DNA of 64,000 nucleotides from Syntrophorhabdaceae bacterium (GTDB taxonomy: Bacteria; Desulfobacterota; Syntrophorhabdia; Syntrophorhabdales; Syntrophorhabdaceae), in NCBI GenBank assembly GCA_963665295.1, contig OY762209.1, positions 2,496,001 to 2,560,000 on the forward strand. Direction: 5' to 3'. Position numbers and translations under genes: made by a program. Positions 7,032 through 51,639 of the stretch are shown here, in pieces. Numbering within the stretch: the stretch's first letter is position 1; every line of letters starts with the position of its first letter. The notes beneath the pieces are model-generated. The model was given only the letters and a program-made list of their open reading frames with translations. It was not told where the DNA came from and did no database searches.

Positions 7032-7914
7032 TGGCCTGACCTTTCAGGCGGGAAGACTTGACCTTGCTCATTGCCTTCGCCACGCGGGTGAACCCGTCGG
7101 CGATGGTGTCGCGGTCCTTGTCACTGTCGTCGGCGCGGGTCTTGGCCCGTGGGGTTGCCATGAATTCGGCGGGATTGAGGCCGAGGTCCGCGAGGAGCTT
7201 CGGGAGAGCAAGCAGGGAGGGATGGGTCACGTACTCGATGTCGGTCCCGTATTTCGTCTTCTTTTCGCGCTTGAGGACCGTACCGTCCCGGAGAATGTCC
7301 TCCATGAGGTTGGAAAGAACGAGCATGGCGTTGCTGATCTGGAGGGCCGCGAGGTCATTGAATTTTTCGACGTTGTTATTTGCGATCGCTTCGTGGACCG
7401 CCCGGTAGAAGGTGAGGACTTCCACCTTGTCGAGGCAGTCGTCGCCCGGCTCCACTTCGCCTTCGTCAACGAGGCTGCACGGGTACTGCGGGCAGGTGCT
7501 TTTGCAGGGCTTCAGCTTGTGGGCGAAGTCCTTCGCGTAGCGGCCGTGCTTCCAACCGTTCCGGTTGCCTTCCATGGCGTCGGCATGGGCGGGTGAGTTG
7601 GCGGCGGCGCGGCGCTGCTCCAGAGCCTCGGGAGAGAGGGTGTAGCGGCGGCGGACGCGGAGGGCGGCGGGGATGCCTACCTCGCGGGGGAGGCCGTGAT
7701 CGTCGGTTTCTTCGTCGTCGGGGGGGCCGGTGGGGTTTTCCTGCTCTTTCATGTAGGCCTCGATTTTGGCTTTGTAAGCGTCGTATTTGGCCTGCTGCTG
7801 GGCGTTGAAGAACTTCCCTTGAAGGAGGAAATCGACGAGACTCCGGTACTGAATCCTCTCGTCCGGGTCGAGGGCGGCGTTTACTATTTCAGGAGTGGGC
7901 TTCGATTCGGCCAT
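7012..7914 (-). CDS. terS: Probable terminase small subunit
   Basis: GNRNGWKHGRY motif, Cys cluster, HPSLLAL...LGLNP segment; overlaps terL start. Confidence 0.65.
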   Translation of the reverse strand: MAESKPTPEIVNAALDPDERIQYRSLVDFLLQGKFFNAQQQAKYDAYKAKIEAYMKEQENPTGPPDDEETDDHGLPREVGIPAALRVRRRYTLSPEALEQRRAAANSPAHADAMEGNRNGWKHGRYAKDFAHKLKPCKSTCPQYPCSLVDEGEVEPGDDCLDKVEVLTFYRAVHEAIANNNVEKFNDLAALQISNAMLVLSNLMEDILRDGTVLKREKKTKYGTDIEYVTHPSLLALPKLLADLGLNPAEFMATPRAKTRADDSDKDRDTIADGFTRVAKAMSKVKSSRLKGQANAGDDE

Positions 7915-7920
7915 GCCATA

Positions 7921-7962
7921 GCCATATCATCCAGAGGGGAAACGGTCTGGCAGAGTGTTGCA
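7921..7962 (-). promoter_or_regulatory. Putative activator-dependent late promoter 2
   Basis: GGAAACG-N11-TGTTGCA (7938-7962) with TATCA 9 nt before GAAACG, the same spacing as at 2932-2969. Confidence 0.6.
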
Positions 7963-9820: not shown

Positions 9821-11401
9821 TCAGTTCTTCTTCTCTTCCAGTATCTCCTTCGGGACTTTTCCGGCGAGGTTTACACCGGATTCCAGGACGAGGCGGATGA
9901 GGTCGGTTTTTTTGCAGTGGGCCGGGGATTTTGCCTTGATGGTGCCTTGCAGGAAGGCCTTCGCCTTCTCGTCTTCGAAGATGCCGAATTCGTGGCCCAG
10001 GGAGAGGATCTCCTTGATGGTCTTCTTTTTGAGGTACTCTTCGTGGATTGTCCAATCCCTTTGGAGGTCGACGCCCAGGTGGGAGGCTACCCGGTGCCTT
10101 GCGGAGGGTCCGAAATCGGGTTGGAGGGTGACGGCGAGTGATGCCTTGCGCAACGCCTCTTTGACTTCGGCGAGGTCCATCTTTTCGACGATCTCCCAGA
10201 GGGATGCGGCTCCATCGTATCCCCCATACCGCTGGGCGGCGGGGAGCACGGCTTTCACCGCGTTAAAGTTGCAGTGCATGAGGGACACGAGGGTGAGGCG
10301 GAGCACTTTGAGGTCGTCGGGGGGAAGATCAGCGGCAAGGGAGGGGATGCGCTCGGCGTAAAAGGCCTCCCGGAACAACTCGCCATGGCCGGGGGTCTTC
10401 TTCGGAGAGGAACCGGACAGGTGTGAGTCCTGGCCCTTCCCTTCCTTGCACTTCGGGTTGAAACAGGCACGGGGAACGAAAAGGCCTCCGTCGAGACGGA
10501 TAATGGTAAAGAAATGCTCACAGGTGAGGCATTTCGCCGAGGGAGTGTAGAGGGACCGGTACTCTCCCCAATCGACCTCGTCCGCGAACCTCACGGCGGG
10601 GGTCTTGTACTCCTTCGCGTATTTCATGGACGGCCAGTGGTCGAGGAAGTGTTTTCGCTGCTTCTCGATGAAACAGGAGGGAAGGAGGCACGACGCCTTG
10701 TCCATCTTGAAGTCATCGCCGAAGAGGGAGCCCTGCACGGCTGAGTTGTGGTTGCATTTCCCGCACCCTGCCTTTTTCCGGTTGAACGCGGCCCGGGCGA
10801 GGGGTTTGGAGCGGTTGTTGAGCATCATCCTGAGTTCGTTGACGGAGGGTATCCTCTGCCGGAATATCTCGATCGCAAATTCGAGGACCTCGCCGGGGTC
10901 GAGCCTGAGCAGTTGCTCGAGGTGGCCGTAGACGAGGGCTCCTTCCTCCCACGCCTTGAGAATCTCGTGGGGCAGAGTGAGGACCCTGACCCTGCGGCGG
11001 ACGTAGCGCGGATCCACGCCGATCCTTTCGGCAAGGGAGGGAATCTCCTCCTCTCCCCTGACCTGGATGTATTCTTTGAAGTTCTTCGCTTCCTCGTATT
11101 CGCTCAAGTCCTCCCGGTGCAAGTTCTCCACGGTCATGACGTCGAGGGCCTCCTCGTCCGTTAAGTCCTGAACCACAGCGGGGATCGTGCCTGTTTCGGC
11201 TTCGCGGGAGGCCCTCAGGCGGCGCTCACCCGCGACAAGCTCGAACCCGCCGTTCATAGGGCGGACAATGACCGGCTCGACGACGCCCTGCTTTCTTATC
11301 GACGCCACCAGCTCGTCAAAACCACGGCCGGAAAAGTTCTCCCTCGGGTTGTGGGGGTTGGCTACGATGTCCGCGAGTGGAATGGTTCTTAATTCTTTCA
11401 T
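9821..11401 (-). CDS. ParB/RepB/Spo0J-family protein with Cys motifs and long C-terminus
   Basis: NPHNPR, LVAGERRLRA CTPase motif, ENLHREDL, HTH; CGKC...CLLPSC; no ParA partner in window. Confidence 0.9.
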   Translation of the reverse strand: MKELRTIPLADIVANPHNPRENFSGRGFDELVASIRKQGVVEPVIVRPMNGGFELVAGERRLRASREAETGTIPAVVQDLTDEEALDVMTVENLHREDLSEYEEAKNFKEYIQVRGEEEIPSLAERIGVDPRYVRRRVRVLTLPHEILKAWEEGALVYGHLEQLLRLDPGEVLEFAIEIFRQRIPSVNELRMMLNNRSKPLARAAFNRKKAGCGKCNHNSAVQGSLFGDDFKMDKASCLLPSCFIEKQRKHFLDHWPSMKYAKEYKTPAVRFADEVDWGEYRSLYTPSAKCLTCEHFFTIIRLDGGLFVPRACFNPKCKEGKGQDSHLSGSSPKKTPGHGELFREAFYAERIPSLAADLPPDDLKVLRLTLVSLMHCNFNAVKAVLPAAQRYGGYDGAASLWEIVEKMDLAEVKEALRKASLAVTLQPDFGPSARHRVASHLGVDLQRDWTIHEEYLKKKTIKEILSLGHEFGIFEDEKAKAFLQGTIKAKSPAHCKKTDLIRLVLESGVNLAGKVPKEILEEKKN

Positions 11402-12750: not shown

Positions 12751-14163
12751 TTACGCCCTTATCGGCATGACGACTGCCTTCTTGTTGATGGTGCATGCCC
12801 CGTAGCTCGCCGGGACTTCCATGACCGTCGTCTCGTACTGAAAAGATTTCAGCGCGTCAATGAGGAACTTGGGGTTGAAGGCGAGGGTAAAGGGACCCTC
12901 CGCTCCTTCGGTTTCGCAGGGGATCTGCCACGAATAGGACGCCCCGGTCTCACTCTCGGCTTCAACCGAAAGGGAACCGTTCGCCTTGAGGCGCACGGAC
13001 TGCTTTGACAGGGGGTTCGCCCCATCGAGAAGCTGCAAGAAGTCCTTCGAGGAAAAGGTGAGCTTCACCGCCGAGGGAGGGACAATGTCCTGATAGTCGG
13101 GGAAATTCCCCTGAACGCACTTTGTCACGAGCAGACCACCCTTCATCGGGAAGGAGACCATGTCCACCTGGTCCTCCGCTTCACCCGGGGCGACGGTGAA
13201 TTCATCCGAAATCGCATGTTTGACCGCGATCTTCACCGCCTGACGGGGCACGGTGAAGGACGGGGCCTGAGCAGGGGTCACGTCGTCGATGTGAAGCCTG
13301 AAGCCGTCCGTGGCGACCACCTTGCCGCGGGAGGGGTCCACGCGGGCGCCGGTGAGGGCATAACGCGAATCGTCGTCACTGATGGCGGGGGCGACTTTTC
13401 GCAGGGCTTCGAGGAGGCCGGAGAGTTGGACCGGGGGGCCGTCGGGGAATACGAGGACCGGGTACTCGGCGGCGTCCGTGGTGTTGAGTTCGCACCGGGA
13501 GTTGACCTGGAGCGTCTCTCCGATGAAGGTGAAGACCACTTCCGAAATATCCTTCGGGAGGGCCTTCACTTCGAGAAGAGTCAGGGCCGTGGGGATGCAG
13601 CGGACCACGGGCTCCGGTGAGTCGCAGGGGATGGAGACGCGCCACGATTCGGCGAGGTTCGTGGCGGATACGGTGCAGACGCCGGGTTTGGTTGTGTCCA
13701 GCATGGTGAAGGAGAGGATGGGGAGGCTTCCTTTCATGGCGGTCACGTCGTTGGCCACGGCGAGGGCCTCGGTGATAAGCTGCCGCTTGATGGTGACGGT
13801 CCTGGGAGTGAGGTCCACCGGCTCGGGGCCGGGAGCGGCTGATTCGGCGGGCTCTGTTTTTTCGGTGGTTTCGGACGGTTCGCCGGAGGGGGCGGCTTCG
13901 GTTGCCGGCGCTATCTCTTCGGGGGCGGTGGGGTCAAGGTGCTCAGTCTGGACAGTGGAGGCGGGAGCCGGTGTCTCCACGGCTGTCGATTTGGACGGCT
14001 TGCGGGTCACACGGTACTCTACCTTCGTGGGTGTTTCCTTTATCTTCTCCGTTACCCATTCCCTCGGGTTGAGGCCGATCGCTTCGAGACCTTCTTTTGT
14101 GCTGGCGACTTCGCCGACGAGCACTTCTGTTCCGATTCCTTCTATTCTATAGATTGATTTCAT
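12751..14163 (-). CDS. DNA polymerase III beta (sliding clamp)-like protein with N-terminal extension
   Basis: LPILS, SATNL, SRYALTG, VATDGFRL, GNFPDYQ, AFNPKFLIDAL, VVMPIR motifs; start MKSIY (14163) with AAGGAGG. Confidence 0.85.
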   Translation of the reverse strand: MKSIYRIEGIGTEVLVGEVASTKEGLEAIGLNPREWVTEKIKETPTKVEYRVTRKPSKSTAVETPAPASTVQTEHLDPTAPEEIAPATEAAPSGEPSETTEKTEPAESAAPGPEPVDLTPRTVTIKRQLITEALAVANDVTAMKGSLPILSFTMLDTTKPGVCTVSATNLAESWRVSIPCDSPEPVVRCIPTALTLLEVKALPKDISEVVFTFIGETLQVNSRCELNTTDAAEYPVLVFPDGPPVQLSGLLEALRKVAPAISDDDSRYALTGARVDPSRGKVVATDGFRLHIDDVTPAQAPSFTVPRQAVKIAVKHAISDEFTVAPGEAEDQVDMVSFPMKGGLLVTKCVQGNFPDYQDIVPPSAVKLTFSSKDFLQLLDGANPLSKQSVRLKANGSLSVEAESETGASYSWQIPCETEGAEGPFTLAFNPKFLIDALKSFQYETTVMEVPASYGACTINKKAVVMPIRA

Positions 14164-14179
14164 GAGATTCCTCCTTGAG

Positions 14180-14449
14180 TTAATTCCCCTTCGAGGGGTT
14201 GTCTTGTGGTACGGGCAATATGACGAGCTTGCTGAATTGGGTACGGTAAATCTCGGCCATCCATTCGAATTCTTCGGGGGTGACTCTACCCGCTTTTGCG
14301 TATACCGGGGAGCCATTTTTCTTGCCGATTTCACGCGGGCCGATCTGAACTTTTGGAGCGCCTCCGTTGTAGGATGAGAGAGAAAACCATAACCCCGTCT
14401 TCTCGTTCTTGATTTCACTGATAACTCGGTCTTTATCTTCATTAAACAT
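14180..14449 (-). CDS. Possible PC4/YdbC-like ssDNA-binding protein
   Basis: FSLSSYNGGAPKVQI...AGRVTPEEF resembles the PC4-fold pattern. Confidence 0.45.
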   Translation of the reverse strand: MFNEDKDRVISEIKNEKTGLWFSLSSYNGGAPKVQIGPREIGKKNGSPVYAKAGRVTPEEFEWMAEIYRTQFSKLVILPVPQDNPSKGN

Positions 14450-15681: not shown

Positions 15682-15822
15682 TCACCCCTCGATTACTTCC
15701 ACTGTTTCCTTCTTGCCGGTGTGCCACCTGATTTCCACATACCCGATTCTGAGGTTGTTCACGCATTCAAACCTGCCGTCCTTGATGTTTCTTTGCGCGG
15801 TGCTCATCTTGATCCTTTTCAT
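15682..15822 (-). CDS. 46-aa small protein, first ORF of the accessory operon
   Basis: Not in ORF track; AGGAGG RBS; MKRIKMSTAQRNIKDGRFECVNNLRIGYVEIRWHTGKKETVEVIEG. Confidence 0.55.
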   Translation of the reverse strand: MKRIKMSTAQRNIKDGRFECVNNLRIGYVEIRWHTGKKETVEVIEG

Positions 15823-15838
15823 TGCTCGTTCCTCCTGG

Positions 15839-15895
15839 AGTGGTTTCGGCCTTGGAAGCGGCCATTCTCAAACCCGGCACTACCGGGTGACCACT
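15839..15895 (-). ncRNA. Type III hammerhead ribozyme, U3-A8 core variant
   Basis: Minus strand AGUGG-UC-ACCCGG uagug CCGGGU-UUGAGAA-U-GGCC gcuuccaa GGCC-GAAA-CCACU; all three stems pair perfectly; GUC cleavage triplet. Confidence 0.75.
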
Positions 15896-15913
15896 GCCTG
15901 AGTTTTATTGTCA

Positions 15914-16215
15914 TGGTGGGTGGGAGGAATTGAACCTCCTTCACCCGGGGACCCGCCTCAGGTCTTTATTCCCCAGTCCGACTTTTGGGTGCGATTAAGC
16001 GGCCCGTGTTACCGCGCTGGGTGCGGTGTCCGTTTCCTGCCCTGCCGTGAAGGCCAGGGAAAGGCCGGAGCGATTTCTGTAGCCGGGCTGACTTGCGGTC
16101 CCGGCATCAACCCTTCCGCCGAAGGGGTTAACAGACGTGGAAGGCTGGACCGTCTCGCGGAGGGGGCGGTCGCTTGCCTGTTTCGTGGTCTGTTTCATTT
16201 TGTCTAATGATTTCA
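15914..16215 (-). ncRNA. Structured leader RNA ending in a tRNA-like minihelix with ACCA
   Basis: Consecutive hairpins, then GGGUG-AA-GGAGG-UUCAAUU-CCUCC-CACCC-A-CCA. Confidence 0.55.
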
Positions 16216-16257
16216 TATACTTATAGTATATTGTAACATACGGGCCTGGGGATGCAA
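16215..16257 (-). promoter_or_regulatory. Sigma70-type promoter with palindromic operator
   Basis: TTGCAT-16-TACAAT with extended TG; ATATACT-TAT-AGTATAT palindrome at 16215-16231. Confidence 0.6.
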
Positions 16258-16504
16258 GAGAAATAACCTGTTAAATCAATGACTTATACATTAAAGGTAA
16301 TCTGTTACCTCAGTTACGGGGCGTACTCGTGAGATACGCGGAGGTGGAGGGGCTGATAAATTTTATGGGGGATGGGGGTTAAAGCGGGCGTGTAGGGGTA
16401 GGTTTTGAAGTGAAAAAGGCGTGAAAAACGGGCAAAAAGGGTGTTTTCTGATATTTAGAATATTAAATAATAAGTTTAGTATGGTGCTATTTCGTGAAAA
16501 ACGC

Positions 16505-20043: not shown

Positions 20044-20337
20044 TTAGTCCTCCCTGAAGGTTCTGTTTTTGTTGTCGCCGTCTACTATGTTGCGGATCTG
20101 CCGAACTCGCAGGCCGTAGCGTTCGGCGAGTTCGGCGTGGTTGGCGCCGTTGAACTGGGTGATGATGCGCCGGTTGCGCTCTTCCCTGAAAAGGTCGTGG
20201 AGGTCGGGAATGGTGACGCGGAGACCCCCTAATTCTTCGATGATCGTTTTGATGACCGCCTGGCCGGAAGCGATACCGAAGTCGGCGGTAAGGCGGCGGA
20301 AGAGTCGGTCGAGGGCGTCACGGTTTTCAGACTTCAT
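20044..20337 (-). CDS. Mor/C-family transcriptional activator
   Basis: ELGGLRVTIP...ERNRRI...FNGANHAELAERYGLRVRQIRNIV; start MKSEN with AGGAGG. Confidence 0.85.
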   Translation of the reverse strand: MKSENRDALDRLFRRLTADFGIASGQAVIKTIIEELGGLRVTIPDLHDLFREERNRRIITQFNGANHAELAERYGLRVRQIRNIVDGDNKNRTFRED

Positions 20338-21418
20338 CGGGGTCACCTCCTGGGGGACGGTTTGCGGGGGCCGGTGAAGGCGTGGGGGAAGGGGGAAGCT
20401 TCCGGTGGCGGGGGCGGCTGGTACGGTCATCGTCATGTTCATCTATTATTTGTCTCCCTTCAAAAATGGAATTGAACTCGCGCCAGTAGACGGCGAGAGA
20501 GGGGTATGTCTGGTGGAGGCGTCCGCGCGTGGCGACGTAGCGGTCGGTGGTGATGATCGAGGCGTGGCCCAGGCGTTCGGCGATGGCGGGGGTATCGTAG
20601 CCCTTGATGTGGCGGAGGTCGTGGGCGTGTGCGGCGCGGAGCATGTGCATGGAGAGCTTCGGCTTGCGGATCTGGGCGCGGGCGGCGAGTGTTTTGAGGA
20701 ACGCGTCGGTGGCTGATGCGGTCAGGGGGTTGTGTTTCGGGCGGGCTCCTCGACCGTAGGAGATGATGAGGGGGTCGGAGGGGCGCGCGCCGTGGCCCAC
20801 GCGGGTGAGGTACCATGCGCGGAGGATGGCGGAGGGGGCTTTCCAGAGATAGACCTTGCGCCATTTCTCGCCTTTGCCGTAGACGTGGATGTCGTAGGAC
20901 TGGCCTTCTTCGACGGCGTTGGCGAGGGTGAGGGTGATGATCTCGCCGATCCGGAGGCCGCAGAAGGCCCCGAGGATGAGGATCACGGCGTCGCGGAGGG
21001 ATTTCTCGGTGATGGGGGGCGCGGCGGCGATGGTGAAGAGGCGGAGGATTTCTTCTTTGGTGAATCGCTGCACCAGGGTCTTGCGGACCTTGGGGAGCGG
21101 GATCTGTGCGGAGGGGTCGGCCGGGATGTGGCCTTCGTAGAGCATGTAGCGGAAAAATTTGCGGATGGCGATGAGCTTCGTGAGGCGGGTGTGGTTGTTG
21201 TTGCCCTGGTAGAAGCAATGCTCCAGAAACGCTTCTATGTCCTGTCGACTGGGGATAGAAGCGGGGGATGGAGACGGGGGCGCAGGGCGGACGGCTTGTC
21301 TGGAGGTCCACCAGGTGCAGAACTCGCGGACGCGGGACGTGTAGACCTTGGCGCTCACGTCGGTGAGGGCATTGAGGACCTTGAGGTGGCGTTCAAATCC
21401 GGGCAGATGATCAAGCAT
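20327..21418 (-). CDS. XerC/D-like tyrosine recombinase
   Basis: SAM-like N-domain; GLRIGE, GKGEK, HMLR, LGHASIITTDRY; start MLDHL with GGAGG. Confidence 0.9.
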   Translation of the reverse strand: MLDHLPGFERHLKVLNALTDVSAKVYTSRVREFCTWWTSRQAVRPAPPSPSPASIPSRQDIEAFLEHCFYQGNNNHTRLTKLIAIRKFFRYMLYEGHIPADPSAQIPLPKVRKTLVQRFTKEEILRLFTIAAAPPITEKSLRDAVILILGAFCGLRIGEIITLTLANAVEEGQSYDIHVYGKGEKWRKVYLWKAPSAILRAWYLTRVGHGARPSDPLIISYGRGARPKHNPLTASATDAFLKTLAARAQIRKPKLSMHMLRAAHAHDLRHIKGYDTPAIAERLGHASIITTDRYVATRGRLHQTYPSLAVYWREFNSIFEGRQIIDEHDDDRTSRPRHRKLPPSPTPSPAPANRPPGGDPDEV

Positions 21419-21769
21419 GGGTGGCCTCCGGGGCGCGAGATGCGGGAAATGGGGCAAAAATCCCCCCGGACCCCCCTCTTCCAACTAAGGGAGATACCGG
21501 ACTGAGAAAAAAACCGGATTTAAGGGACCGGGAAGAGAAAAGGATGGGCAATGCTGATGGGCAAAACCGAAAATGGTTTGAAAATAGGCTCCATTTTATA
21601 CCGGGTAATAGGGGGTGGGGTGGGGATGGAAACGGGAGCTTTTCGAGGGGGGGAGGGTATCCGGGCTCCTGATCGGGCTGCCTGAACTGGAGCGATTGAA
21701 AACTTACCGCAGTATTGTGAAAAAGGGATGGCTGAAAACCGTTGGAAACAGGTATCGGGACTGACCCCT

Positions 21770-34588: not shown

Positions 34589-35544
34589 TAGATAGCCCCC
34601 TTCTGGAAATCGGACTGCATCCGGCTCCAGGCTTCTTTGACCTCGTGCACTTCCATGGGAATGCAGAGATACTTCCATACCCCGTCGAGAATGATCATCA
34701 TGAGATCGATGAACGGCATGGGGGGCCGACCTCTGAGAATGGGGAGGACGGCAACGGCTATTACCTCAAGAATCGATGTGAGGATGATAGTTCTTGCCCC
34801 CAGGGCTCGCTTCAGCGCGAAGGCCTCATTGAAATCGTTTCGCTTGAATCGATGAAAAAGATGCAAAATAAGGGACCTGCGCGTGAGCGATGAGTGGGCG
34901 TAAGGTTCAGAACTGGTAAACAAGATCATGCCTTTCGGCGTAATCTCCTCCACGGCAGGCGACGGACCGGTTTCTTTCCCCATGGAACCCTCGGTCGCCA
35001 ACATCAAAGGCTTGGCCATCCTGAAACCGTCGAAGCCCAGCAGCGGAGTTTTCTCAAAGTCGCAAGAAATTAGTGAGGACGGAGCCAAGTAACTGTTCCC
35101 CGTCACAAGGGAGTTTATGATGCGAGCGGAAACAGTCTTTCCCGAGCCGATAGAACCTGATATGCAGAACAATGGCCGAGACAAGGCAAAATCGGCGAGG
35201 AAAATGGCGATCAGCCACGATATTACAAAGTAGATATCCGGCGGGGAACACGGAAGTGATTCCTGAAGAATCTCTTCCAGGAGAGCCATGCCTTCTTCCA
35301 TCGGGACGCTGTCATCAGGGTCCACGGGGGAGAAACGCACCGGCTGCCAGAGGAGGATACCTTCCTCATTGTAACCATTCGCCATGGGCCACACCCTAGA
35401 CTTTGTGCGTCGTCCGGTGTCGAGAGGGCCAATTCTGAAAATGTGCCGGTTGCGACTATTGACATTCACATAAACGACGCCCTTGCGGGTGTCCGTGTGA
35501 ATCCAGGAGGGTATCACCGTCATATCCGTTGGAGACCCCTTCAT
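34588..35544 (-). CDS. Stand-alone paralogue of the primase ATPase region
   Basis: WIHTD..VYVNVN..NGYNEEGILL and GSIGSGKT align with WIHTD..VYINLN..NGLNEDGVLL and GSTAAGKT of 23957-27025. Confidence 0.8.
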   Translation of the reverse strand: MKGSPTDMTVIPSWIHTDTRKGVVYVNVNSRNRHIFRIGPLDTGRRTKSRVWPMANGYNEEGILLWQPVRFSPVDPDDSVPMEEGMALLEEILQESLPCSPPDIYFVISWLIAIFLADFALSRPLFCISGSIGSGKTVSARIINSLVTGNSYLAPSSLISCDFEKTPLLGFDGFRMAKPLMLATEGSMGKETGPSPAVEEITPKGMILFTSSEPYAHSSLTRRSLILHLFHRFKRNDFNEAFALKRALGARTIILTSILEVIAVAVLPILRGRPPMPFIDLMMIILDGVWKYLCIPMEVHEVKEAWSRMQSDFQKGAI

Positions 35545-36275
35545 ATCTCGCCCACCCTTTGCATCTCTTCTTTCGTCGGACCCGTATAGACCACCGTGGA
35601 GTTGATCGATTTGTGACGGAGCTGACGCTGGGCGAGGAGAAGCGCCTTGTGGCGTTCCGTGTCGTCCAGGTGCTTCCTGTCGTTCATTATCCTTTGGCCT
35701 TTAGTGTGTCTCAGGGCGTGGGGAGTGTAGCGGGGGATACCGGACCGGGTGGTCCAGTAATCCATTAGATCGTTAAAGGAGCGGAGGGATAGCCTCCCGC
35801 CTTTCTTCGAAATGAACAGCGGAGAATCATCTTCAAGACCCTCCCGCCACTGTCGTTTGAGACGAAGAAAGTGCTTGAGTATGTCCTGCAGCTCGACGGG
35901 CAGGTAGACTTCCCCTACCGCCCCCTTTTCTGCGATCCGTTCGTCAACTATTATTTTGTCCTTCCCCATTACGTCGCCCACGTCGAGGGCGAGGACCTCA
36001 CCCCGGCGGAGTCCCGTGGACCGGCAGAGCTTCAAGAGCACGTAGTCGCGCTCCGCCTGTTTCCCTTTGGTGCCCTTGAGACAGTTAAAGAGGGTCTTCT
36101 CTTCCTGCACGGTGAGATAATTCGTCCCGGCCCGGCTCCGGCCCTGCTTCCTTTCGGGAGCCATTGCGGCGTCCAGGACAAAAACCTTGGGCGCGAGGGA
36201 GTGGAGAAGGACAGTCCAGGCGACGAGAGTTGCAGCCTGACTGGTAGGTGGGGCTTGTCTTGTTTCCGTGATCAT
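35541..36275 (-). CDS. Short tyrosine recombinase (catalytic domain only)
   Basis: TGLRRGE, HALRH, LRHKS, TVVY; no SAM-like N-domain. Confidence 0.85.
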   Translation of the reverse strand: MITETRQAPPTSQAATLVAWTVLLHSLAPKVFVLDAAMAPERKQGRSRAGTNYLTVQEEKTLFNCLKGTKGKQAERDYVLLKLCRSTGLRRGEVLALDVGDVMGKDKIIVDERIAEKGAVGEVYLPVELQDILKHFLRLKRQWREGLEDDSPLFISKKGGRLSLRSFNDLMDYWTTRSGIPRYTPHALRHTKGQRIMNDRKHLDDTERHKALLLAQRQLRHKSINSTVVYTGPTKEEMQRVGEI

Positions 36276-39643: not shown

Positions 39644-40834
39644 ATGTCGGTCAAATGGGACAAAAAACGGGAAAGGTTTATTTTGGACTATTACCCGAAA
39701 GGGGGCAAGGGTATACGAAAGAGGCTGACCCTTCCCGCCGTCGTGAGGGACCCTGCGGTTGCCGAGGCGATAGAATATGACCTCCGGCATCCATACGAAC
39801 ACTCCGAACTGCGCGCCGACAGCAAATCGACGGTGAATGACTTGTTTCCCGACTACCTGGTATATTATAAGGACCATCATTCTATCACCACCCACGACAA
39901 CATGCTCTGGACGTTCGGCAAGTATTTCGGTCCCATCCTCGGAGAAATACGGGCCACCGAATTAAACAAAGGGCACCTCTCGATGTACAAACGGATCAGG
40001 AAGGAGGGAAAGGTAAAGAACAGAACCGTGAATAAGGAAATGACCTATTTCATGGGGTTCGTCAATTGGTGCAGGAAAGAGCAGCAACTCCTCATGAACG
40101 ATTTCAAATATGAGCGCATGAAGGAAACAAAGCCGGAACACGTCATTCTCTCCATCGATGAAGCTATACGGTTCATCCTGTCCTCGGACCCCTACTACCG
40201 CGTATTTTTCCTCACCCTGTATTCTCTTGGACTGCGCTTTGCGGAGGCGACCGGGCTTAACTGGGAGGACCTTGACCCCGCGAATAAAAGGATTATCGCG
40301 AGAGGGAAGGGGGGCAAGGAAAGGGTGCTGCCCGTCTCGGACTGGCTTCTCTATGCTCTGAACTCAGCCAAGCCCAAGGACAAGAAGGCGGAAGGGTTGA
40401 TTTTCCGGAGCCGAATAACGGGAAGCAAGCTCGTCAACGTGCAAAAAGCCATTAACCGGGCCTGCAAAAGGGCCGGGATAGAAAAACATGTGCATCCTCA
40501 CCTTCTTCGGCACACGCTCGCCACCCATTTTATGGCCATGAAGATCAATATTAAAATCGTGCAGGAATGGCTCGGCCATTCCCGGGAGGATACGACTGCA
40601 AATATGTACATGCACGCGGAGATGGAACACCTGAGGACCGCCATGGATGCGCTGAATGTCCATCTCGATGAGCAATTCACCAAACAGACCTTCGATAAGC
40701 CGGAGACCCCGGTGAAGCGGAAATATACAGTATCAGAAAAGGTTCTGGAAGCCCGCCGCAAAGCGGCCCCTCTAGCAAGAGCGGCGAAATCAGCAAAAGT
40801 TACGTCTATTCCAACTGAAGGGAAAAAGGCCTAA
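39644..40834 (+). CDS. int: Prophage integrase (tyrosine recombinase)
   Basis: GLRFAE, GKGGK, HLLRH, LGHS...MY; adjacent to the tRNA fragment. Confidence 0.95.
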   Translation: MSVKWDKKRERFILDYYPKGGKGIRKRLTLPAVVRDPAVAEAIEYDLRHPYEHSELRADSKSTVNDLFPDYLVYYKDHHSITTHDNMLWTFGKYFGPILGEIRATELNKGHLSMYKRIRKEGKVKNRTVNKEMTYFMGFVNWCRKEQQLLMNDFKYERMKETKPEHVILSIDEAIRFILSSDPYYRVFFLTLYSLGLRFAEATGLNWEDLDPANKRIIARGKGGKERVLPVSDWLLYALNSAKPKDKKAEGLIFRSRITGSKLVNVQKAINRACKRAGIEKHVHPHLLRHTLATHFMAMKINIKIVQEWLGHSREDTTANMYMHAEMEHLRTAMDALNVHLDEQFTKQTFDKPETPVKRKYTVSEKVLEARRKAAPLARAAKSAKVTSIPTEGKKA

Positions 40835-41887: not shown

Positions 41888-44803
41888 ATGAGGAAGGAAT
41901 TGGAACACTGCCGAAGAAGACGCGTCACCATGGCCTTATGGTTTTTCACGACATGCCTTCTCATTGCATCAATCCCCGTACATGCAAAGACAAAAAACCT
42001 TCTTGAGTTCAACTCCGGAAGCCATGTCCTGGGCTTTTCCTCCGGGTCCATGTACATGGCCTCCGGCACCCATGTGCTGAGGGTAGAGTTCGTGGGTGGG
42101 AAGTCGGTAGCCCCCGTCTCCAAGGAGGGACTCTCCTCCGATGGGAAGGCCCCTCCCTTGAGCAAGGTAATCTATCCGAACATATGGGACGGAGTGGACA
42201 TCGTCTATGAAGGAGCCAAAGGCTCCATCGTGAAGTCTACCTATACGGTGGCTGCGGGCAAGGCCCCCGGTTCCATCCGCCTCCGCTACAACCGGCCCCT
42301 TACCCTGGATAAGAAGGGCAACCTCGTGGTCCGCTTCGAGACGGGGGAAATGACGGAAAGCAGGCCCGTCGCGTGGCAGGTCGTGGAGGGCAAAAAGAAA
42401 CCCGTCATGGTGGCGTACAACCTCCAATCGGATAAGGAAGTGGGGTTTACGGTAAAGGATTATGACACAAGCCTGCCGCTGGTGATAGACCCCTATTTTT
42501 CGTGGAATACCTTCCTCGGGGGAAGCGGCACCGATTACGGATACGCCATAGCCGTGGATTCCGGCGGGAACATCTATGTGGCGGGAGCGAGCAGCGCGAC
42601 GTGGGGGACGAGCCCTGTAAGGGCATACACCTCAAACTATGATGCCTTCGTGGCCAAGCTGACGGCCGACGGGGTACTCGTCTGGAACACTTTCGTTGGG
42701 GGAGACGGCGTTGATTATAGTCAGGCGGTAACGGTCGATTCCGCAGGTAACGTCTATGTAGCAGGCATCAGCACCGCCGCGTGGGGCGCCCCGGTGAGGG
42801 GCTACACATCAGGCTACGACGGTTTCGCCGCCAAGCTTACTCCTGACGGCGCCCTGGTGTGGAACACCTTCCTCGGGGGGAAGGGCAATGACTGGGGAAG
42901 CGGTATAGCCGTGGATTTGGCTGGAAATACCTACGTGACCGGATACGGCGACGGCGCATGGGGCTCGCCGATAAGGGGCTACGCAGGGGGGAATTACGAC
43001 GGTTTCGCCGCCAAACTTACTCCTGACGGCGCCCTGGTGTGGAACACCTTCCTCGGAAGCTATTTCGAGGACCACGGCACCGCCATAGCTGCGGATTCAG
43101 GCGGGAACGTGTATGTAGCCGGGCGCAGCGTCGGATCGTGGGGTACGCCGGTCAGGGACTACACAGCAGGCTATGACGCCTTCGTGGCGAAACTGACGGG
43201 CAACGGCGCCCTTATCTGGACCACCTTCCTTGGAGGTTACGACAGCGACTGGGGAAACGCGATAACCGTGGACTCGAACGATTACGTCTACGTAGCGGGA
43301 GACAGCTATGCAACATGGGGACTGCCTAAGAGGCCTTACAATGCCGACCTTGACGCCTTCGCCGCCAAACTTACTCCTGACGGCGCCCTCATCTGGAACA
43401 CCTTCCTGGGGGGGAAAGGGGCCGACCGCGGCAAGGGCATCGCCGTGGATTCGAGCGGCAATGCGCATGTGACGGGATACAGCACTGCCGCATGGGGCGC
43501 CCCGGTGCGGGGCTACGCATCCGACGACGACGCTTTTGTCGCTGAACTGGGCACCACCGATGGAATGCTTTTGTGGAGTGCCTTTCTCGGAGGAAGTGGG
43601 TCCGACCAGGGGTGGGGCGTCGCCGTAGATTCAAGCGGCGGGGTTTGTGTGGCCGGATACAGCACTGCCGCATGGGGCGCCCCGGTGAGGGGATACACAT
43701 CAGGCTACGACGCCTTTGTCGCCAGGTTCGGCTATTCAGGCACCTTTTCCCTTTCTGTGGCAACGGCCGGCACCGGGAGCGGCTCGGTTACCAGCAGTCC
43801 CTCCGGCATCGACTGCGGCTCCACATGCGTGGGTTCCTTCTCCCTGGGGTCGTCTGTCACCCTCACGGCCAACGCAAACACGGGCTCCACCTTCCGGGGC
43901 TTCACAGGCTGCGACTCTACCTCAAACAACACCTGTAAGGTGTTCTTAACCTCCGACAGGATCGTCACCGCGACGTTTACCACCACCGGGGCCTGTACCT
44001 ACACTATCTCTCCCGCGAGGGCGTCCTTTGCCTACAAAGGGGGCAGCGCCAACGTCACCGTTCAGGCCACGGGGACGAACTGCGCAAGCCCGTTCGTCTA
44101 CGTGAGCGATACGTGGATAGGGGCGAGCCTCACCTCATTCAAAAACAACAAGGGAACGGTAAAAGTAACCGCCCCGGCCAACAATTCCGTCACGGAGAGA
44201 AAAGGCGAGGTGACCATAGAGACGAATACCTTTACCATCACCCAGGTGGGATCCCCTTGTTCGCTTACTTCCATCTCTCCCACGAGCAAGACCTTCACCG
44301 CCTCGGGAGGATCACACTCGTTCGCCGTCACCGCCACCACAGGCTGCGGGTGGAGTGTATTATTAAATGCGGACTGGCTCACTCCCTTCACCGTTACCGG
44401 GACGGGAACGGACTCCGTCTCTTATGCCGCCCCGGTGAACACCACCGGAAAGCAGAGAAGCGGGAAGATCACTGTGTTCCTCACCGATACCCCAACAAAG
44501 AAGAAGGTGTTTACGGCCAAGCAATCCCCCTGTACCCTCACCATCTCCCCGACTGCCGACACCTTTATCTCTGAGGGGGGATCGGGTTTGCTTATTGTCA
44601 CCGCCCCCGAGGGTTGCCCGTGGAGTGTGTCGTCAAATGCGGACTGGCTCACCACCGGGACCGGCTCGGGGAGCGGAGAGGTTTTTGTCTCCTACACGGC
44701 CCTTAAGAACACTACGGGGAAGCAGAGGAGTGGGAAGATCACCGTATTCCTCACCGACACCCCTTCCAAGAAGAAGGCGTGTACGGTGACGGAGAAGAAA
44801 TAG
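41888..44803 (+). CDS. Secreted SBBP-repeat beta-propeller protein with InlB-B-like and BACON domains (copy 1)
   Basis: Signal peptide; seven WNTFLGG...IAVDS.GNVYVAG...DAFVAKL blades; SSPSGIDCGSTC; C.W...WLT...NTTG..RSG. Confidence 0.9.
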   Translation: MRKELEHCRRRRVTMALWFFTTCLLIASIPVHAKTKNLLEFNSGSHVLGFSSGSMYMASGTHVLRVEFVGGKSVAPVSKEGLSSDGKAPPLSKVIYPNIWDGVDIVYEGAKGSIVKSTYTVAAGKAPGSIRLRYNRPLTLDKKGNLVVRFETGEMTESRPVAWQVVEGKKKPVMVAYNLQSDKEVGFTVKDYDTSLPLVIDPYFSWNTFLGGSGTDYGYAIAVDSGGNIYVAGASSATWGTSPVRAYTSNYDAFVAKLTADGVLVWNTFVGGDGVDYSQAVTVDSAGNVYVAGISTAAWGAPVRGYTSGYDGFAAKLTPDGALVWNTFLGGKGNDWGSGIAVDLAGNTYVTGYGDGAWGSPIRGYAGGNYDGFAAKLTPDGALVWNTFLGSYFEDHGTAIAADSGGNVYVAGRSVGSWGTPVRDYTAGYDAFVAKLTGNGALIWTTFLGGYDSDWGNAITVDSNDYVYVAGDSYATWGLPKRPYNADLDAFAAKLTPDGALIWNTFLGGKGADRGKGIAVDSSGNAHVTGYSTAAWGAPVRGYASDDDAFVAELGTTDGMLLWSAFLGGSGSDQGWGVAVDSSGGVCVAGYSTAAWGAPVRGYTSGYDAFVARFGYSGTFSLSVATAGTGSGSVTSSPSGIDCGSTCVGSFSLGSSVTLTANANTGSTFRGFTGCDSTSNNTCKVFLTSDRIVTATFTTTGACTYTISPARASFAYKGGSANVTVQATGTNCASPFVYVSDTWIGASLTSFKNNKGTVKVTAPANNSVTERKGEVTIETNTFTITQVGSPCSLTSISPTSKTFTASGGSHSFAVTATTGCGWSVLLNADWLTPFTVTGTGTDSVSYAAPVNTTGKQRSGKITVFLTDTPTKKKVFTAKQSPCTLTISPTADTFISEGGSGLLIVTAPEGCPWSVSSNADWLTTGTGSGSGEVFVSYTALKNTTGKQRSGKITVFLTDTPSKKKACTVTEKK

Positions 44804-44871
44804 AAGAATCGGCCCCTCCCTCCATGAGAGGGGCACAGAGATAGATATCACTTTACACAAAGGAGCGAGAG

Positions 44872-47800
44872 ATGACAAGAAAACCGACGTACCACCGAAC
44901 ATGGTTCACCATTACTCCATGCCTCTTCACGGCATGCCTTCTCGTTGCGATGCTCTTTGCCTCGGCACATGCAAAGACAGCCGACGGGAAGGACCTCCTC
45001 CAGTTCACCTCGAAGGGCCATATCCTCGGCTTCTCTCCCGGTTCCATGTATATGGCTTCAGGCTCCCATATGCTCAAGGTGGAGTTTCTGGGAGGAAAGT
45101 CCGTCTCTCCCGTCTCCAAGGAAGGACCCTCCTCCGATGGAAAGGCCCCTCCCTTGAGCAAGGTAACCTATCCGAACATATGGGACGGAGTGGACATCGT
45201 CTATGAAGGAGCCAAAGGCTCCATCGTGAAGTCTACCTATACGGTGGCTGCGGGCAAGGCCCCAGGTTCCATCCGCCTCCGCTATAACAGACCCCTTACC
45301 CTCGATGAGAAGGGCAACCTCGTGGTCCGCTACGAAACCGGCACTATCACGGAATCCAAACCCATTGCCTGGCAGGTCATAGAAGGAAAGAAGAAGCCCG
45401 TCATGGTGGCGTACAACCTCCAATCGGATAAGGAAGTGGGGTTTACGGTAAAGGATTACGATAAGAGCATTCCGTTGGTTATCGACCCCTCTTTTGGGTG
45501 GTACACCTTCCTCGGAGGCAGCGGTACGGATTATGGACAGGCCATAGCCCTCGATTCGAGCGGGAACATCTATGTGGCAGGCTACAGCAGCGCCGCATGG
45601 ACGGAGACCCCGGTCAGGGCCTACTACGGGTCGGGCACCGACGCCTTCGTGGCCAAACTGAATCCCGACGGGTCCCTCGCCTGGTACACCTTCCTCGGGG
45701 GCAGCGGCACTGATAACGGATACGCCATAGCCCTCGATTCGAACGCCAACATCTATGTGACGGGCCAGAGCAACGCCACCTGGGGCTCGCCGCTGCAGGC
45801 TTACACATCAGGCTATGACGCCTTCGTGGCCAAACTGAATGCCTCCGGATCCCTCGTCTGGCACAGCTTCCTCGGGGGGAGCGGAAGTGATTGCGGGCAG
45901 GCCATAGCCCTCGATTCGAACGCCAACATCTATGTGACGGGCCAGAGCAACGCCACCTGGAGATCGCCGCTGCGGGCTTACACATCAGGCTATGACGCCT
46001 TCGTGGCCAAACTGACCACCGACGGCAGTCTCGTCTGGCACAGCTTCCTCGGGGGCAGCGGCACTGATAACGGATACGCCATAGCCCTCGATTCGAACGC
46101 CAACATCTATGTGACGGGGCGCAGCAGCGCCACCTGGGAAAGCCCGGTCAGGGCTTACACATCAGGCTATGACGCCTTCGTGGCCAAACTGACCACCGAC
46201 GGAAGCTTCCTGTGGAACACCTTCCTCGGCGGCAGTAGTACGGATTACGGGCAGGCCATAGCCCTCGATTCCGGCGGGAACATCTATGTGGCAGGCTACG
46301 GCAGCGCTGCATGGACGGAGACCCCGGTCAGGGCCTACGACGGGTCGGGCACCGACGCCTTCGTGGCCAGACTGAATCCCGACGGGTCCCTCGTCTGGCA
46401 TACCTTCCTCGGCGGCAGCGGCACTGATTACGGACAGGCTATCACCCTCGATTCCGGCGGCAATATCTATGTGACAGGACGCAGCAACGCCGCATGGACG
46501 GAGACCCCGGAGAGGGCTTACACATCAGGCTATGACGCCTTCGTGGCCAGACTGACCACCGATGGCAACCTCACCGGCCATACCTTCCTCGGCGGCAGCG
46601 GCACTGATTACGGCTACGGCGTAGCCCTCGATTCGAGCGACAACATCTACGTGACGGGCTGCAGCAGCACCGCATGGACGGAGACCCCGGTGAGGGTCTA
46701 CACGTCGAGCTATGACGCCTTCGTGGCCAGGGTCATGTTCCCTCCGCTCAGGTCCATGTCGGTCTCAGTGACGGGTGCGGGGACCGGCACGGTGACGAGC
46801 AGTCCCTCGGGCATTAACTGCGGCTCGACCTGTTCGGCTGCTTTCAGCCAGGAAACGACCGTTACCCTCACGGCTGTTGCGGGGGCCCACTCGGTCTTCA
46901 CCGGCTGGACCGGAGGGGGGTGCAGCGGAAACGGAACGTGCGTAATCACATTGGCCGGCGAAGACATTACTGTGACCGCGGAATTCTCCCTGGTCACCTT
47001 CACGGTGGGCGCATCGGTTGAGGGCGGCCACGGGACCGTGTCCCCGGACACCCAGGCCGTGACCTACAACACTTCTGCGACGATCACCATGACCCCCGAT
47101 CCGGGATACCACGTGGCGGGCGTGAGCGACACGGTGCAGGAAGCGCGGGGCGCGAAAAAAGGCTCGGTCACAAAGAAGGCGGTAAAACCGGCCGGTTCCG
47201 CCCCCACCTATACCATAAACCGCGTTACCGCCAACCATGCCGTAGTAGTCACCTACGAGGCCGATCCCGAAACCCTCACCGCGAGGAAAACAGGCACGGG
47301 AAGCGGTACTCTCTCGGCCTCGGGCCTCACCTGCTCCGGCCTCACCTGCTCGGGGACATATGGGTATAATACTACGGTCACCATCACCGCCACTCCCGAT
47401 ACGGGTTCTTCCTTCACGGGATGGACCGGCTGCGACTCCACGTCGGGCCTCACCTGCGTGATCGCCATGACCGCCACCAGGAGTGTCACAGCCAACTTCG
47501 ACATAAGCAACTCATGCACCTACGCGGTCTCGTGGACGGACAAGGTTTTCGGCCACAAAGGAGGGAGCGCCAATATTACTCTCAGGGCCACGGGGGGCAA
47601 GACCTGCGCGAACCCCGAGGTTGCCTCGGAGGACGCCTGGGTAGGGGTCAGTCTGAGCGCGTTCAAGAACAACAAGGGCACTGTAAAGATAAGCGTTTTG
47701 CCCAACGACGGGGCGACGGAGAGGACCGGCACCGTGAGCATACGGGGTAACGCCTTCCACGTGGTCCAGGCCGGAGCGCCATGCTCCGTCTTCCTTCCTG

Positions 47801-48054
47801 CGACGAGCGACACCCTGGATGCAGAAGGAGGACCGCACTCCTTTGCCGTCAATGCCCCCACGGGCTGCGCATGGAGCGTATCATCATCGGAGGACTGGCT
47901 GACAGGCATCACCAGTGCGGGAACAGGGACGGGACTCGTCTCCTACATCGCCTCCGGGAATACCACGGGGAAGCAGAGGAGTGGGAAGATCACCGTATTC
48001 CTCACCGACACCCCTTCCAAGAAGAAGGTGTTTACGGTGAAAGAGAAGAAATAA
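44872..48054 (+). CDS. Secreted SBBP/InlB-B/BACON protein (copy 2)
   Basis: Same architecture; AAGGAG RBS. Confidence 0.9.
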   Translation: MTRKPTYHRTWFTITPCLFTACLLVAMLFASAHAKTADGKDLLQFTSKGHILGFSPGSMYMASGSHMLKVEFLGGKSVSPVSKEGPSSDGKAPPLSKVTYPNIWDGVDIVYEGAKGSIVKSTYTVAAGKAPGSIRLRYNRPLTLDEKGNLVVRYETGTITESKPIAWQVIEGKKKPVMVAYNLQSDKEVGFTVKDYDKSIPLVIDPSFGWYTFLGGSGTDYGQAIALDSSGNIYVAGYSSAAWTETPVRAYYGSGTDAFVAKLNPDGSLAWYTFLGGSGTDNGYAIALDSNANIYVTGQSNATWGSPLQAYTSGYDAFVAKLNASGSLVWHSFLGGSGSDCGQAIALDSNANIYVTGQSNATWRSPLRAYTSGYDAFVAKLTTDGSLVWHSFLGGSGTDNGYAIALDSNANIYVTGRSSATWESPVRAYTSGYDAFVAKLTTDGSFLWNTFLGGSSTDYGQAIALDSGGNIYVAGYGSAAWTETPVRAYDGSGTDAFVARLNPDGSLVWHTFLGGSGTDYGQAITLDSGGNIYVTGRSNAAWTETPERAYTSGYDAFVARLTTDGNLTGHTFLGGSGTDYGYGVALDSSDNIYVTGCSSTAWTETPVRVYTSSYDAFVARVMFPPLRSMSVSVTGAGTGTVTSSPSGINCGSTCSAAFSQETTVTLTAVAGAHSVFTGWTGGGCSGNGTCVITLAGEDITVTAEFSLVTFTVGASVEGGHGTVSPDTQAVTYNTSATITMTPDPGYHVAGVSDTVQEARGAKKGSVTKKAVKPAGSAPTYTINRVTANHAVVVTYEADPETLTARKTGTGSGTLSASGLTCSGLTCSGTYGYNTTVTITATPDTGSSFTGWTGCDSTSGLTCVIAMTATRSVTANFDISNSCTYAVSWTDKVFGHKGGSANITLRATGGKTCANPEVASEDAWVGVSLSAFKNNKGTVKISVLPNDGATERTGTVSIRGNAFHVVQAGAPCSVFLPATSDTLDAEGGPHSFAVNAPTGCAWSVSSSEDWLTGITSAGTGTGLVSYIASGNTTGKQRSGKITVFLTDTPSKKKVFTVKEKK

Positions 48055-48117
48055 AAGTATGAAGCCCCTCCCCGCGGGGGGCGCAGGAAGATAGATAATA
48101 CCTAAAAGGAGCAAGAG

Positions 48118-51100: not shown

Positions 51101-51639
51101 CCCTCACCATCTCCTCGACCGGCAATACCCTCTCCCCGGCGGGGGGAACGGACTCCTTTACCGTCAATGCCCCCACGGGCTGCGCATGGAGCGTATCATC
51201 ATCGGAGGACTGGCTGACAGGCATCACCAGTGCGGGAACAGGGACGGGACCCGTCTCCTACACGGCCTCTGAGAATACCACGGGGAAGCAGAGGATCGGG
51301 AAGATCACCGTATTCCTCACCGACACCCCAACGAAGAAGAAAGTATTTACGGTGAAGCAGTCACTCTGCACCCTCACCACCTCCTCGACCGGCAATACCC
51401 TCTCCCCTGTGGGAGGAACGGACTCCTTTACCGTCAATGCCCCCACGGGCTGCGCATGGAGCGTATCATCATCGGAGGACTGGCTGACAGGCATCACCAG
51501 TGCGGGAACAGGGACGGGACCCGTCTCCTACACGGCCTCTGAGAATACCACGGGGAAGCAGAGGAGCGGGAAGATCACCGTATTCCTCACCGACACCCCA
51601 ACGAAGAAGAAAGTGTTTACGGTGACGGAGAAGAAATAG
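48118..51639 (+). CDS. Secreted SBBP/InlB-B/BACON protein (copy 3)
   Basis: Same architecture; duplicated terminal BACON. Confidence 0.9.
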   Translation: MKTAYTHSPHCGRRPAALFLFLACLLLSVLLIPKAYAKEANLLQFTSKGHILGFSPGSMYMASGSHMLKVEFLGGKSVSPVSKEGPSSDGKAPPLSKVTYPNIWDGVDIVYEGAKGSIVKSTYTVAAGKAPGSIRLRYNRPLTLDEKGNLVVRYETGTITESKPIAWQVIEGKKKPVMVAYNLQSDKEVGFTVKDYDKSIPLVIDPSFGWYTFLGGSSSDYVGGIAMDSSGNFYVAGHSNATWGTPLRPYTGGWDVFVAKLTADGQLVWNTFLGGSGDDRGGGTLRGGGGFSRAGGIGLDSSGNIYVAGTSGATWGDSVRGYTGGSDAFVAKLTADGQLVWNTFLGGSGTDSGTAMAVDAGGNVYVVGDTDTGWGNPINLFAGLTDCSVAKVTSDGQLAWNTFFGSYLLDYGYGVALDRSGNVYVLGTSQGGGWGSPVRAYTGGADAFVAKMTPDGALTWHAFLGGSDWDHGYGIAADESGNIYTTGLSKKTWGSPVRAFSGVPGNSWDVFVAKMTSDGALTWNTFLGGATGCEEGWAVTSDPRNGKVYVTGQSNYTWGSPIRDYGGYYGDSDVFVAGLAADGELIWNTFLQSGSNSGPGGIALDSQRDIYIAGLTTGTKWGSPIRAYSGGYDGFLMKINRDKEISVTLTGTGTGTVTSSPAGIDCGSICSASFAEGTTVTLTAVAGAVGTTFYGWTGGGCSGTGTCVITMAGEDIAVSAEFSPTIYTVNASVSGGHGTVSPETQAVTHKSSVSITMTPDAGYHIVTITDNVQEEARGAKKGSGTRKVVKPVRSAKSGSGYVYSISSITANHTVAVAYEADLYTLTATKTGAGTGTLTATGLACSGNTCSGTYPYGASVTITATHDAGSSFTGWTGCDSTSGNTCVIAITANKSVAAAFGISDPCTYTVSWKDKPFAHKGGSATITVKATGAKTCTTPTPSASDAWITTSMGSFANNKGTVRVTISANDSVTERTGAVTIRGNSFQVTQDGTPCTLTISSTGNTLSPAGGTDSFTVNAPTGCAWSVSSSEDWLTGITSAGTGTGPVSYTASENTTGKQRIGKITVFLTDTPTKKKVFTVKQSLCTLTTSSTGNTLSPVGGTDSFTVNAPTGCAWSVSSSEDWLTGITSAGTGTGPVSYTASENTTGKQRSGKITVFLTDTPTKKKVFTVTEKK

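Follow-up and report, generated by a model that had tools for sequence, protein, structure and literature searches.

A hammerhead-like motif on the minus strand stands directly in front of the ribosome-binding site (RBS) of the first gene of a cargo operon, and the questions are whether the motif is a genuine self-cleaving ribozyme and what its cleavage would separate. The window analysed here is the whole 64-kb stretch of DNA. Up to about 40.8 kb it is a prophage-like region, encoding a cement protein, two ParB proteins, clamp-like, DUF488, DUF6573 and Mom-like DAM/GNAT proteins, Mor and a primase. An earlier note on this DNA had described the anatomy of the motif at 15895-15839 on the minus strand, and reading of the sequence confirmed each segment:

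15839-15895, minus strand: type III hammerhead with a U3-A8 core and an extra U after A9, found by reading, fold, model, covariation and descriptor
15895-15890, minus strand: 5' strand of stem III, AGUGG(U), read from the sequence
15889, minus strand: C17; G16.2-U16.1-C17 occupy 15891-15889 in hammerhead numbering
15888-15872, minus strand: stem I, ACCCGG (15888-15883), loop UAGUG, CCGGGU (15877-15872)
15871-15865, minus strand: core UUGAGAA, that is U3 U4 G5 A6 G7 A8 A9
15864, minus strand: extra U, directly 5' of G10.1
15863-15848, minus strand: stem II, GGCC (15863-15860), loop GCUUCCAA, GGCC (15851-15848)
15847-15844, minus strand: GAAA, that is G12 A13 A14 A15.1
15843-15839, minus strand: 3' strand of stem III, CCACU
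15820-15836, minus strand: Shine-Dalgarno AGGAGG (15836-15831) and ATG (15822-15820) of the first cargo gene
15822-15682, minus strand: first cargo gene, 46 aa, with the DUF6573 gene next

The whole motif reads AGUGG-UC / ACCCGG-UAGUG-CCGGGU / UUGAGAA-U / GGCC-GCUUCCAA-GGCC / GAAA-CCACU on the minus strand. All three stems were perfect, and stem III comprised 6 bp, namely A15.1-U16.1 plus five more pairs. The catalytic bases U4, G5, A6, A9, G12, A13, A14, A15.1-U16.1 and C17 were intact in the window, together with G10.1-C11.1. The core departed from the hammerhead consensus in having U3-A8 for C3-G8 and one U after A9, and the rest was present. The minimum free energy (MFE) fold of 15900-15835 was a three-way junction of -28.4 kcal/mol (z = -2.9), and 0 of 200 shuffles were equally stable. 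Stems I and II were closed by loops and stem III was open in both the MFE and the centroid folds, which identifies the motif as type III. The geometry proposed earlier was also upheld: cleavage between 15889 and 15888, as predicted, would divide the transcript into an upstream RNA of ~336 nt and an mRNA whose AGGAGG begins 2 nt past stem III.

A tertiary contact between loop I and loop II is required for fast hammerhead cleavage at cellular Mg2+. Complementarity of the two loops was compared with that of permuted loop partners in 31 distinct sequences with 500 permutations. The family mean was 3.23, against 2.75 +/- 0.13 for the permuted partners, and 0 of 500 permutations were as high. In the window the match was AGU/GCU, with 3 pairs only, one of them a G.U.

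A helix-aware descriptor was then applied, which allowed C3-G8 or U3-A8 and 0-1 inserted base and required at least 4 bp in stem I, at least 4 bp in stem III and at least 3 bp in stem II with G10.1-C11.1. It gave one match on both strands of the window, at this site, and 0 in 100 dinucleotide shuffles. The Rfam hammerhead models, proposed earlier as a check, left the site unscored at every threshold used. At the gathering score, no hammerhead, no HDV-like match and no family for the leader was found in the whole window, and at E<=10 neither a hammerhead nor a leader family was reported on 15700-16400 (701 nt) or on 15825-15910 (86 nt), the longer segment giving no HDV-like match either. RF00008 did not report the site over the 5.5-Mb genome, where one unrelated 15-bit match was obtained elsewhere; the gathering cut-off of this family is 48.5 bits. 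Rfam also gave no hammerhead match on three homologous loci (L002, L004 and L005). As L002 has a canonical core, the missing match reflects low sensitivity of the models to the subfamily as a whole and not a particular rejection of U3-A8.

A pattern derived from the motif retrieved 37 viral contigs, and 25 of them were aligned. Left out were 10 duplicates (L015, L021, L024, L027, L029, L033, L036, L041, L042 and L044) as well as L017 and L019, both without evident stem I. When Rfam Hammerhead_3 was run on 20 viral loci, four were matched with 36.5, 28.3, 27.1 and 25.3 bits, 0 of 20 reached the cut-off of 48.5, and the extra U was treated as an insertion in the alignment to the matched loci. 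Model R1, trained on the 25 viral-contig hammerheads, matched the window at 15897-15837 (minus strand) with 44.5 bits and E 1.6e-9, a score that is partly circular because the training set came from a pattern derived from this motif and that is independent in stem I pairing, spacing and loops only. Over the 5.5-Mb genome the window site was the sole R1 match with E<0.1. The runner-up matches at 11187-11242 (minus strand, 14.5 bits, E 0.14) and 7906-7950 (minus strand, 13.8 bits, E 0.23) were probably due to chance. One viral contig, L016, carried a type II hammerhead above its Rfam cut-off (41.3 against 37 bits) ~600 nt upstream of a type III hammerhead, the two being located at 26-96 and 697-756.

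The U3-A8 pair had been interpreted as a compensatory swap for C3-G8, and the close relative L063 bore this out. L063 shares the stem I 5' strand and loop of the window, but its core has C3 and G8 in place of U3 and A8, so the two core changes are compensatory. Several natural examples of U3-A8 replacing C3-G8, active in vitro, are described in section 8 of PMC3088659. The window has the same compensatory Watson-Crick swap, here combined with an extra U between A9 and G10.1. Insertion after A9 as a natural hammerhead variation, also put forward earlier, agrees with PMC3705267 and PMC4209133. The change of A10 to U in the CChMVd plus-strand hammerhead increased the trans-cleavage rate 3-4 fold (summarised in PMC3705267), and in hammerheads of Penelope-like elements the base inserted between 9 and 10.1 is conserved (PMC4209133). 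The window shares with both one inserted base in the same place, but those insertions belong to a viroid and a eukaryotic retroelement, whereas here a large phage subfamily with at least 50 distinct helix-validated inserted-U examples is concerned.

Among the 100 distinct pattern matches listed from a wider viral scan, 50 passed the helix filter, all with the inserted U. These 50 listed matches comprised 49 with C3-G8, one with C3-A8 and none with U3-A8; no second U3-A8 hammerhead was therefore present among the helix-validated viral-contig matches listed. U at position 3 was found in 25 of the 100 distinct pattern matches listed, all 25 without stems I and II. Six near-identical viral contigs (L020, L021, L027, L036, L041 and L044) carried C3 but A8 in the core CUGACAA, with otherwise perfect helices, and this core is an uncompensated variant. 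The U3-A8 pair and the extra U are each known from print as tolerated natural variations.

Upstream of the hammerhead, a promoter and a conserved leader were identified:

16230-16257, minus strand: promoter, read from the sequence, with -35 TTGCAT (16257-16252), a 16-nt spacer and a TG-extended -10 TACAAT (16235-16230)
15896-16224, minus strand: conserved leader RNA module, found by BLAST, motif scans, alignment and RNAalifold
15995-16216, minus strand: 73-codon open reading frame (ORF) in the leader, ATG at 16216, TAA at 15997-15995
15897-15962, minus strand: closing helix, CCUGAG (15962-15957) with CUCAGG (15902-15897), from compensation in homologues
15914-15946, minus strand: T-arm-like minihelix GGGUG-AA-GGAGG-UUCAAUU-CCUCC-CACCC, then ACCA

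The transcript is predicted to start near 16224. A consensus promoter scan missed the promoter because its -35 box fits 3 of 6 positions only; homologues have TTGACA-17-GATAAT or TATACT at this position. A search with a 23-nt leader motif retrieved 3 genome-contig, 15 metagenome and 2 viral loci, and the members of the module were the window (15896-16224, minus strand), L004, L052, L053, L057-L071 and L075. The module was 330-480 nt long and occurred in a short form and a long form with an inserted domain of ~150 nt. Its invariant core of ~50 nt was ACCCAGCGCGGUAA ... GCACCCAAAAGUCGGACUGGGGA, the latter located at 15992-15970 in the window. The leader hairpin CCCUUC-GGCG-GAAGGG covaried, with the versions CCCUUC/GAAGGG, CCUGUC/GACAGG, CCUGGC/GCCAGG and CCUCGC/GCGAGG, and a hairpin CCGGG..CCCGG was also present. 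Rfam has no family that matches the module, and the leader RNA that the hammerhead ends is uncatalogued.

The minihelix lies within the closing helix, the end of which is 8 nt upstream of the predicted cleavage site (8-9 nt in most copies). Its compensatory versions were CCCGA/UCGGG, CCAUGGG/CCCAUGG, CCGGGA/UCCCGG and G.U variants. The anchored search for this helix mis-anchored the window, L052 and L068, which were read by eye, and no single-sequence shuffle test was significant in it; a wide-window search was uninformative. In the leader 5' half (GCGGGUUCCAUUCCC) of L052, L061 and L068, a second T-loop-like hairpin, GGG-UUCCAUU-CCC, was observed, with frames differing between copies.

The leader ORF had 51-73 codons and was open in every module copy, with a conserved stop. 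Its ATG was located 6 or 12-14 nt after the -10 box, and there was no Shine-Dalgarno sequence; in L004 and L075, where the distance was 6 nt, the transcript would be leaderless. Substitutions were spread evenly over the codon positions (8/11/12 and 9/9/11), with no protein-like pattern. The conserved nucleotide blocks were read in differing frames between copies, and frame shifts were compensated between copies. The even substitutions and the frame differences indicate that the leader RNA is constrained and the peptide is not. The ORF product matched no Pfam family at E<=1, no PHROG family at E<=0.01 and just 3 proteins in a search of 5.8 billion proteins. Plus-strand ORFs across the site matched no Pfam family at E<=1. 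The leader was also considered as an antisense RNA to the window, and short-word BLAST gave chance-level matches only (best 15 nt, E 0.017).

Homologues of the hammerhead were found by BLAST at three places in one related genome (G053), with any match in 3 of 61 relatives, and across the order 5 of 96 genomes gave matches. BLAST of 15780-16300 against phage and plasmid collections gave no match. In L002 and L005, stem I was GCCGGA-UAGUG-UCCGGC, followed by CUGAAGA-U-GGCC ... GGCC-GAAA. Compared with the window, stem I covaries and the core is canonical C3/G8. Stem I was 100% paired in the 25 viral-contig sequences, and 4 of 4 pairs covaried. RNAalifold recovered the junction from 6 module sequences, with changes on both sides of stems I, II and III. 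Across homologues, the single-stranded core bases were fixed and the stems covaried.

Among the copies collected, 11 of the 13 distinct modules with their 3' side on the contig ended with a hammerhead: the window, L063, L002, L004, L059, L067, L070, L053, L052, L068 and L061. Identical copies and the unrelated match L069 had been removed from this set, and the motif-less L002 type had been added. L071 and L058 had no hammerhead, and the contig of L057 stops before the spot. L053, L052, L061 and L068 had a stem II of GUCC-GAAA-GGAC and no extra U, so these four are independent of the search pattern derived from the motif. Hammerhead_3 matched them at the same place in the module, with 42.2 bits (E 1.5e-6) for L053, 36.1 for L061 and 35.0 each for L052 and L068, all below the cut-off; they were 4 of 7 loci searched, the other three being two without a hammerhead and one ending before it. 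Sequence similarity between loci ended directly after the hammerhead.

Several homologues showed oddities in the core. At position 3, L004 had UA and L059, L067 and L070 had UU in place of C3; L052, L068 and L061 had an extra base at N7; and L063 had an A.C mispair at 1.1-2.1 adjoining the core, plus an extra C. These oddities could reflect relaxed constraint. Insertions beside C3 lower activity under standard conditions (PMC3088659), so some module copies may be slow or dead. In L071, at about 920-1010, hairpins and an intrinsic terminator, GAGCCGCA-UCU-GCGGCUC followed by a U run, were located just before the RBS. This 70-nt replacement segment was considered as another ribozyme class and rejected, as it had no Rfam match and folded into hairpins and the terminator. 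In L058, a promoter-like TTGACT stretch was present in the place of the hammerhead.

The minihelix had been called a tRNA-like RNA in the earlier note. The hairpin is real in the window; its tRNA-likeness is not conserved in homologues. ARAGORN found no tRNA and no tmRNA in the window. Rfam models gave 17.2 bits for beta_tmRNA (cut-off 84) and 14.9 bits for tmRNA_permuted (cut-off 47), and these matches covered the T-arm stretch only, which does not make it a tmRNA. The T-arm/ACCA likeness was limited to the window, L063 and L058, the latter two carrying similar GGUUCUAU(U/C)CC hairpins, and L004, L002, L053, L052 and L061 had unrelated hairpins at this spot and kept the hammerhead. The hammerhead is retained irrespective of whether the hairpin resembles a tRNA. 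The ACCA ends at 15914, 25 nt before C17, and lies inside the covarying closing helix, not at a free 3' end. The T-arm/ACCA stretch was also considered as an attachment site, and no second copy was found in the host genome at <=3 mismatches.

The first cargo gene heads a variable set. In four relatives the module headed an operon in which variable small genes came first (DUF6908, RadC-like, ligase-like or unnamed), followed by a conserved block, in which a clamp-like gene and ParB were present at the three loci whose sequence extends far enough. DUF488 and MgsA_C were each found in 2 of the 4 relatives, and L072 was matched for ParB and MgsA_C only. A Mom-like gene and a terminase were located upstream in L075. 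In the window, the clamp-like protein (12751-14442, minus strand) had DNA polymerase III beta domains and an N-terminal extension of ~210 aa of no known family, and its gene was conserved beside DUF488 and ParB in related elements. Three tyrosine recombinases were encoded within 20 kb, at 20327-21484 (minus strand), 35541-36275 (minus strand) and 39644-40834 (plus strand), and more than one mobile element may be present here. Five tandem paralogues of ~1000-1170 aa with DUF7948, SBBP beta-propeller, InlB-B-like repeats and BACON were encoded at 41888-58374 (plus strand), followed by a large subtilase at 58403-61852 (plus strand); these genes are located shortly beyond the prophage-like region, whose end is near the integrase at 39644-40834.

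Taken together, the motif is quite probably a genuine type III hammerhead, predicted to cleave itself co-transcriptionally after C17 and to free the leader from the cargo mRNA. Both cleavage itself and its purpose we infer from sequence. Transcription would begin at the promoter at about 16257-16230, and the hammerhead would fold in the 5' part of the operon transcript and cut the backbone after C17, between 15889 and 15888. The released leader of ~336 nt would carry a 2',3'-cyclic phosphate end and an 8-nt 3' tail after the closing helix. The remaining mRNA would have a 5'-OH, the stem I and II hairpins as a cap and its RBS 2 nt past the freed stem III strand. The cut would probably serve to part the leader from the cargo mRNA, and whichever cargo gene follows would receive an identical, defined 5' end. 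In RiboJ-type engineered insulators, a hammerhead between a promoter-proximal leader and the RBS gives the downstream gene a constant 5' end. RiboJ is a synthetic part, whereas the analogy for the window is drawn from the border between a conserved module and variable cargo; such variable cargo would fit an insulator-like role.

The intrinsic terminator of L071 suggests that ending the RNA at this place is what matters, and it fits a need for a defined leader 3' end. A further reading, which we hold tentatively and with some doubt, is that the hammerhead serves to form the 3' end of the members of an uncatalogued phage RNA family and frees a stand-alone RNA before swappable accessory genes. 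This RNA would be structured and 330-480 nt long, made first from a strong promoter, with the invariant core of ~50 nt, T-loop-like hairpins and an always-open, drifting ORF. Once released, it could act as an early regulator or a decoy.

Other explanations of the motif were weighed against self-cleavage. An unlikely one is that the three-way junction derives from a hammerhead but has lost its cleavage activity, and is now either a relic or a purely structural leader element that sets RBS accessibility. The Rfam models without a match at the site would fit a dead junction, as would the variation of position 3 and the nearby core in homologues (UA, UU, the N7 base and the A.C mispair), the impaired activity caused by insertions next to C3 under standard conditions (PMC3088659) and the modules of L071 and L058 that do without a hammerhead. 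However, the change at position 3 of the window is matched at position 8 by a Watson-Crick U-A pair, with the other catalytic bases and the stems intact, and core bases that are fixed while stems covary are not required of a mere junction. Conservation and covariation in relatives belonging to other genera effectively refute a chance match of the site to the hammerhead consensus. Short motifs do arise randomly, and 25 of the 100 distinct pattern matches listed had U at position 3, but stems I and II were missing from all 25, whereas the window has all three helices and the descriptor found nothing in the shuffles.

It is very improbable that the hammerhead matures the 3' end of a tRNA-like RNA as a counterpart of the HDV-like theta ribozymes, a parallel that the earlier note had drawn. 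The UUCAAUU loop, the 5-bp acceptor-like stem and the ACCA 25 nt upstream speak for it, together with the weak tmRNA-model matches and the similar hairpins of L063 and L058. These model scores are nevertheless far under their cut-offs, ARAGORN recognised neither RNA, and five homologues keep the hammerhead beside unrelated hairpins; CCUGAG/CUCAGG closes around the ACCA, and 25 nt of trailer would remain after the cut. True tRNAs are the partners of theta ribozymes, and a role in trailer removal has been postulated for them (PMC10879173). They share with the window ribozyme a self-cleaving nature and a place downstream of an RNA gene-like element in phage, but they are HDV-like double pseudoknots adjoining real tRNAs, whereas the window has a hammerhead and a hairpin that is neither conserved nor terminal (PMC10879173). 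The analogy therefore fails on fold, neighbour and geometry.

Hundreds of bacterial hammerheads have been reported, many near integrase genes in prophages, and they often flank genes, which implies processing of long phage transcripts (PMC3088659). The earlier note had not recognised the arrangement as described, yet both gene-flanking prophage hammerheads and U3-A8 were in print in 2011 (PMC3088659). The window shares with these ribozymes (PMC3088659; RF00008) the fold, the core, the prophage setting near integrase genes, the place between an upstream RNA segment and the RBS of the next gene, and the proposed processing of long phage transcripts. Weak stems III are common among bacterial hammerheads (PMC3088659), and weak or short stems III occur in relatives. 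Unlike the clustered prophage hammerheads described in PMC3088659, the window copy is single, below the Rfam reporting thresholds and fixed at the 3' end of a conserved promoter-proximal leader.

The ribozyme alone is one more prophage hammerhead, an already-known sort of phage element. It is a rare natural combination of the U3-A8 pair with a 9/10.1 insertion, missed by the Rfam models along with its canonical relatives, and it gives a practical warning that an inserted-U phage subfamily is overlooked by Rfam (0 of 20 loci at the cut-off). The more useful lead is the setting, in which a conserved promoter-plus-leader module gives way, exactly at the hammerhead, to a variable slot with DUF6573, DUF6908, RadC-like, ligase-like or unnamed genes. 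In phage-like elements from genomes of the Syntrophobacterales and Syntrophorhabdales type, this slot heads a conserved block of clamp-like, DUF488 and ParB genes. The role of phage hammerheads has long been debated, and the locus offers a concrete case in which it may be formation of a leader end, insulation of downstream translation, or both.
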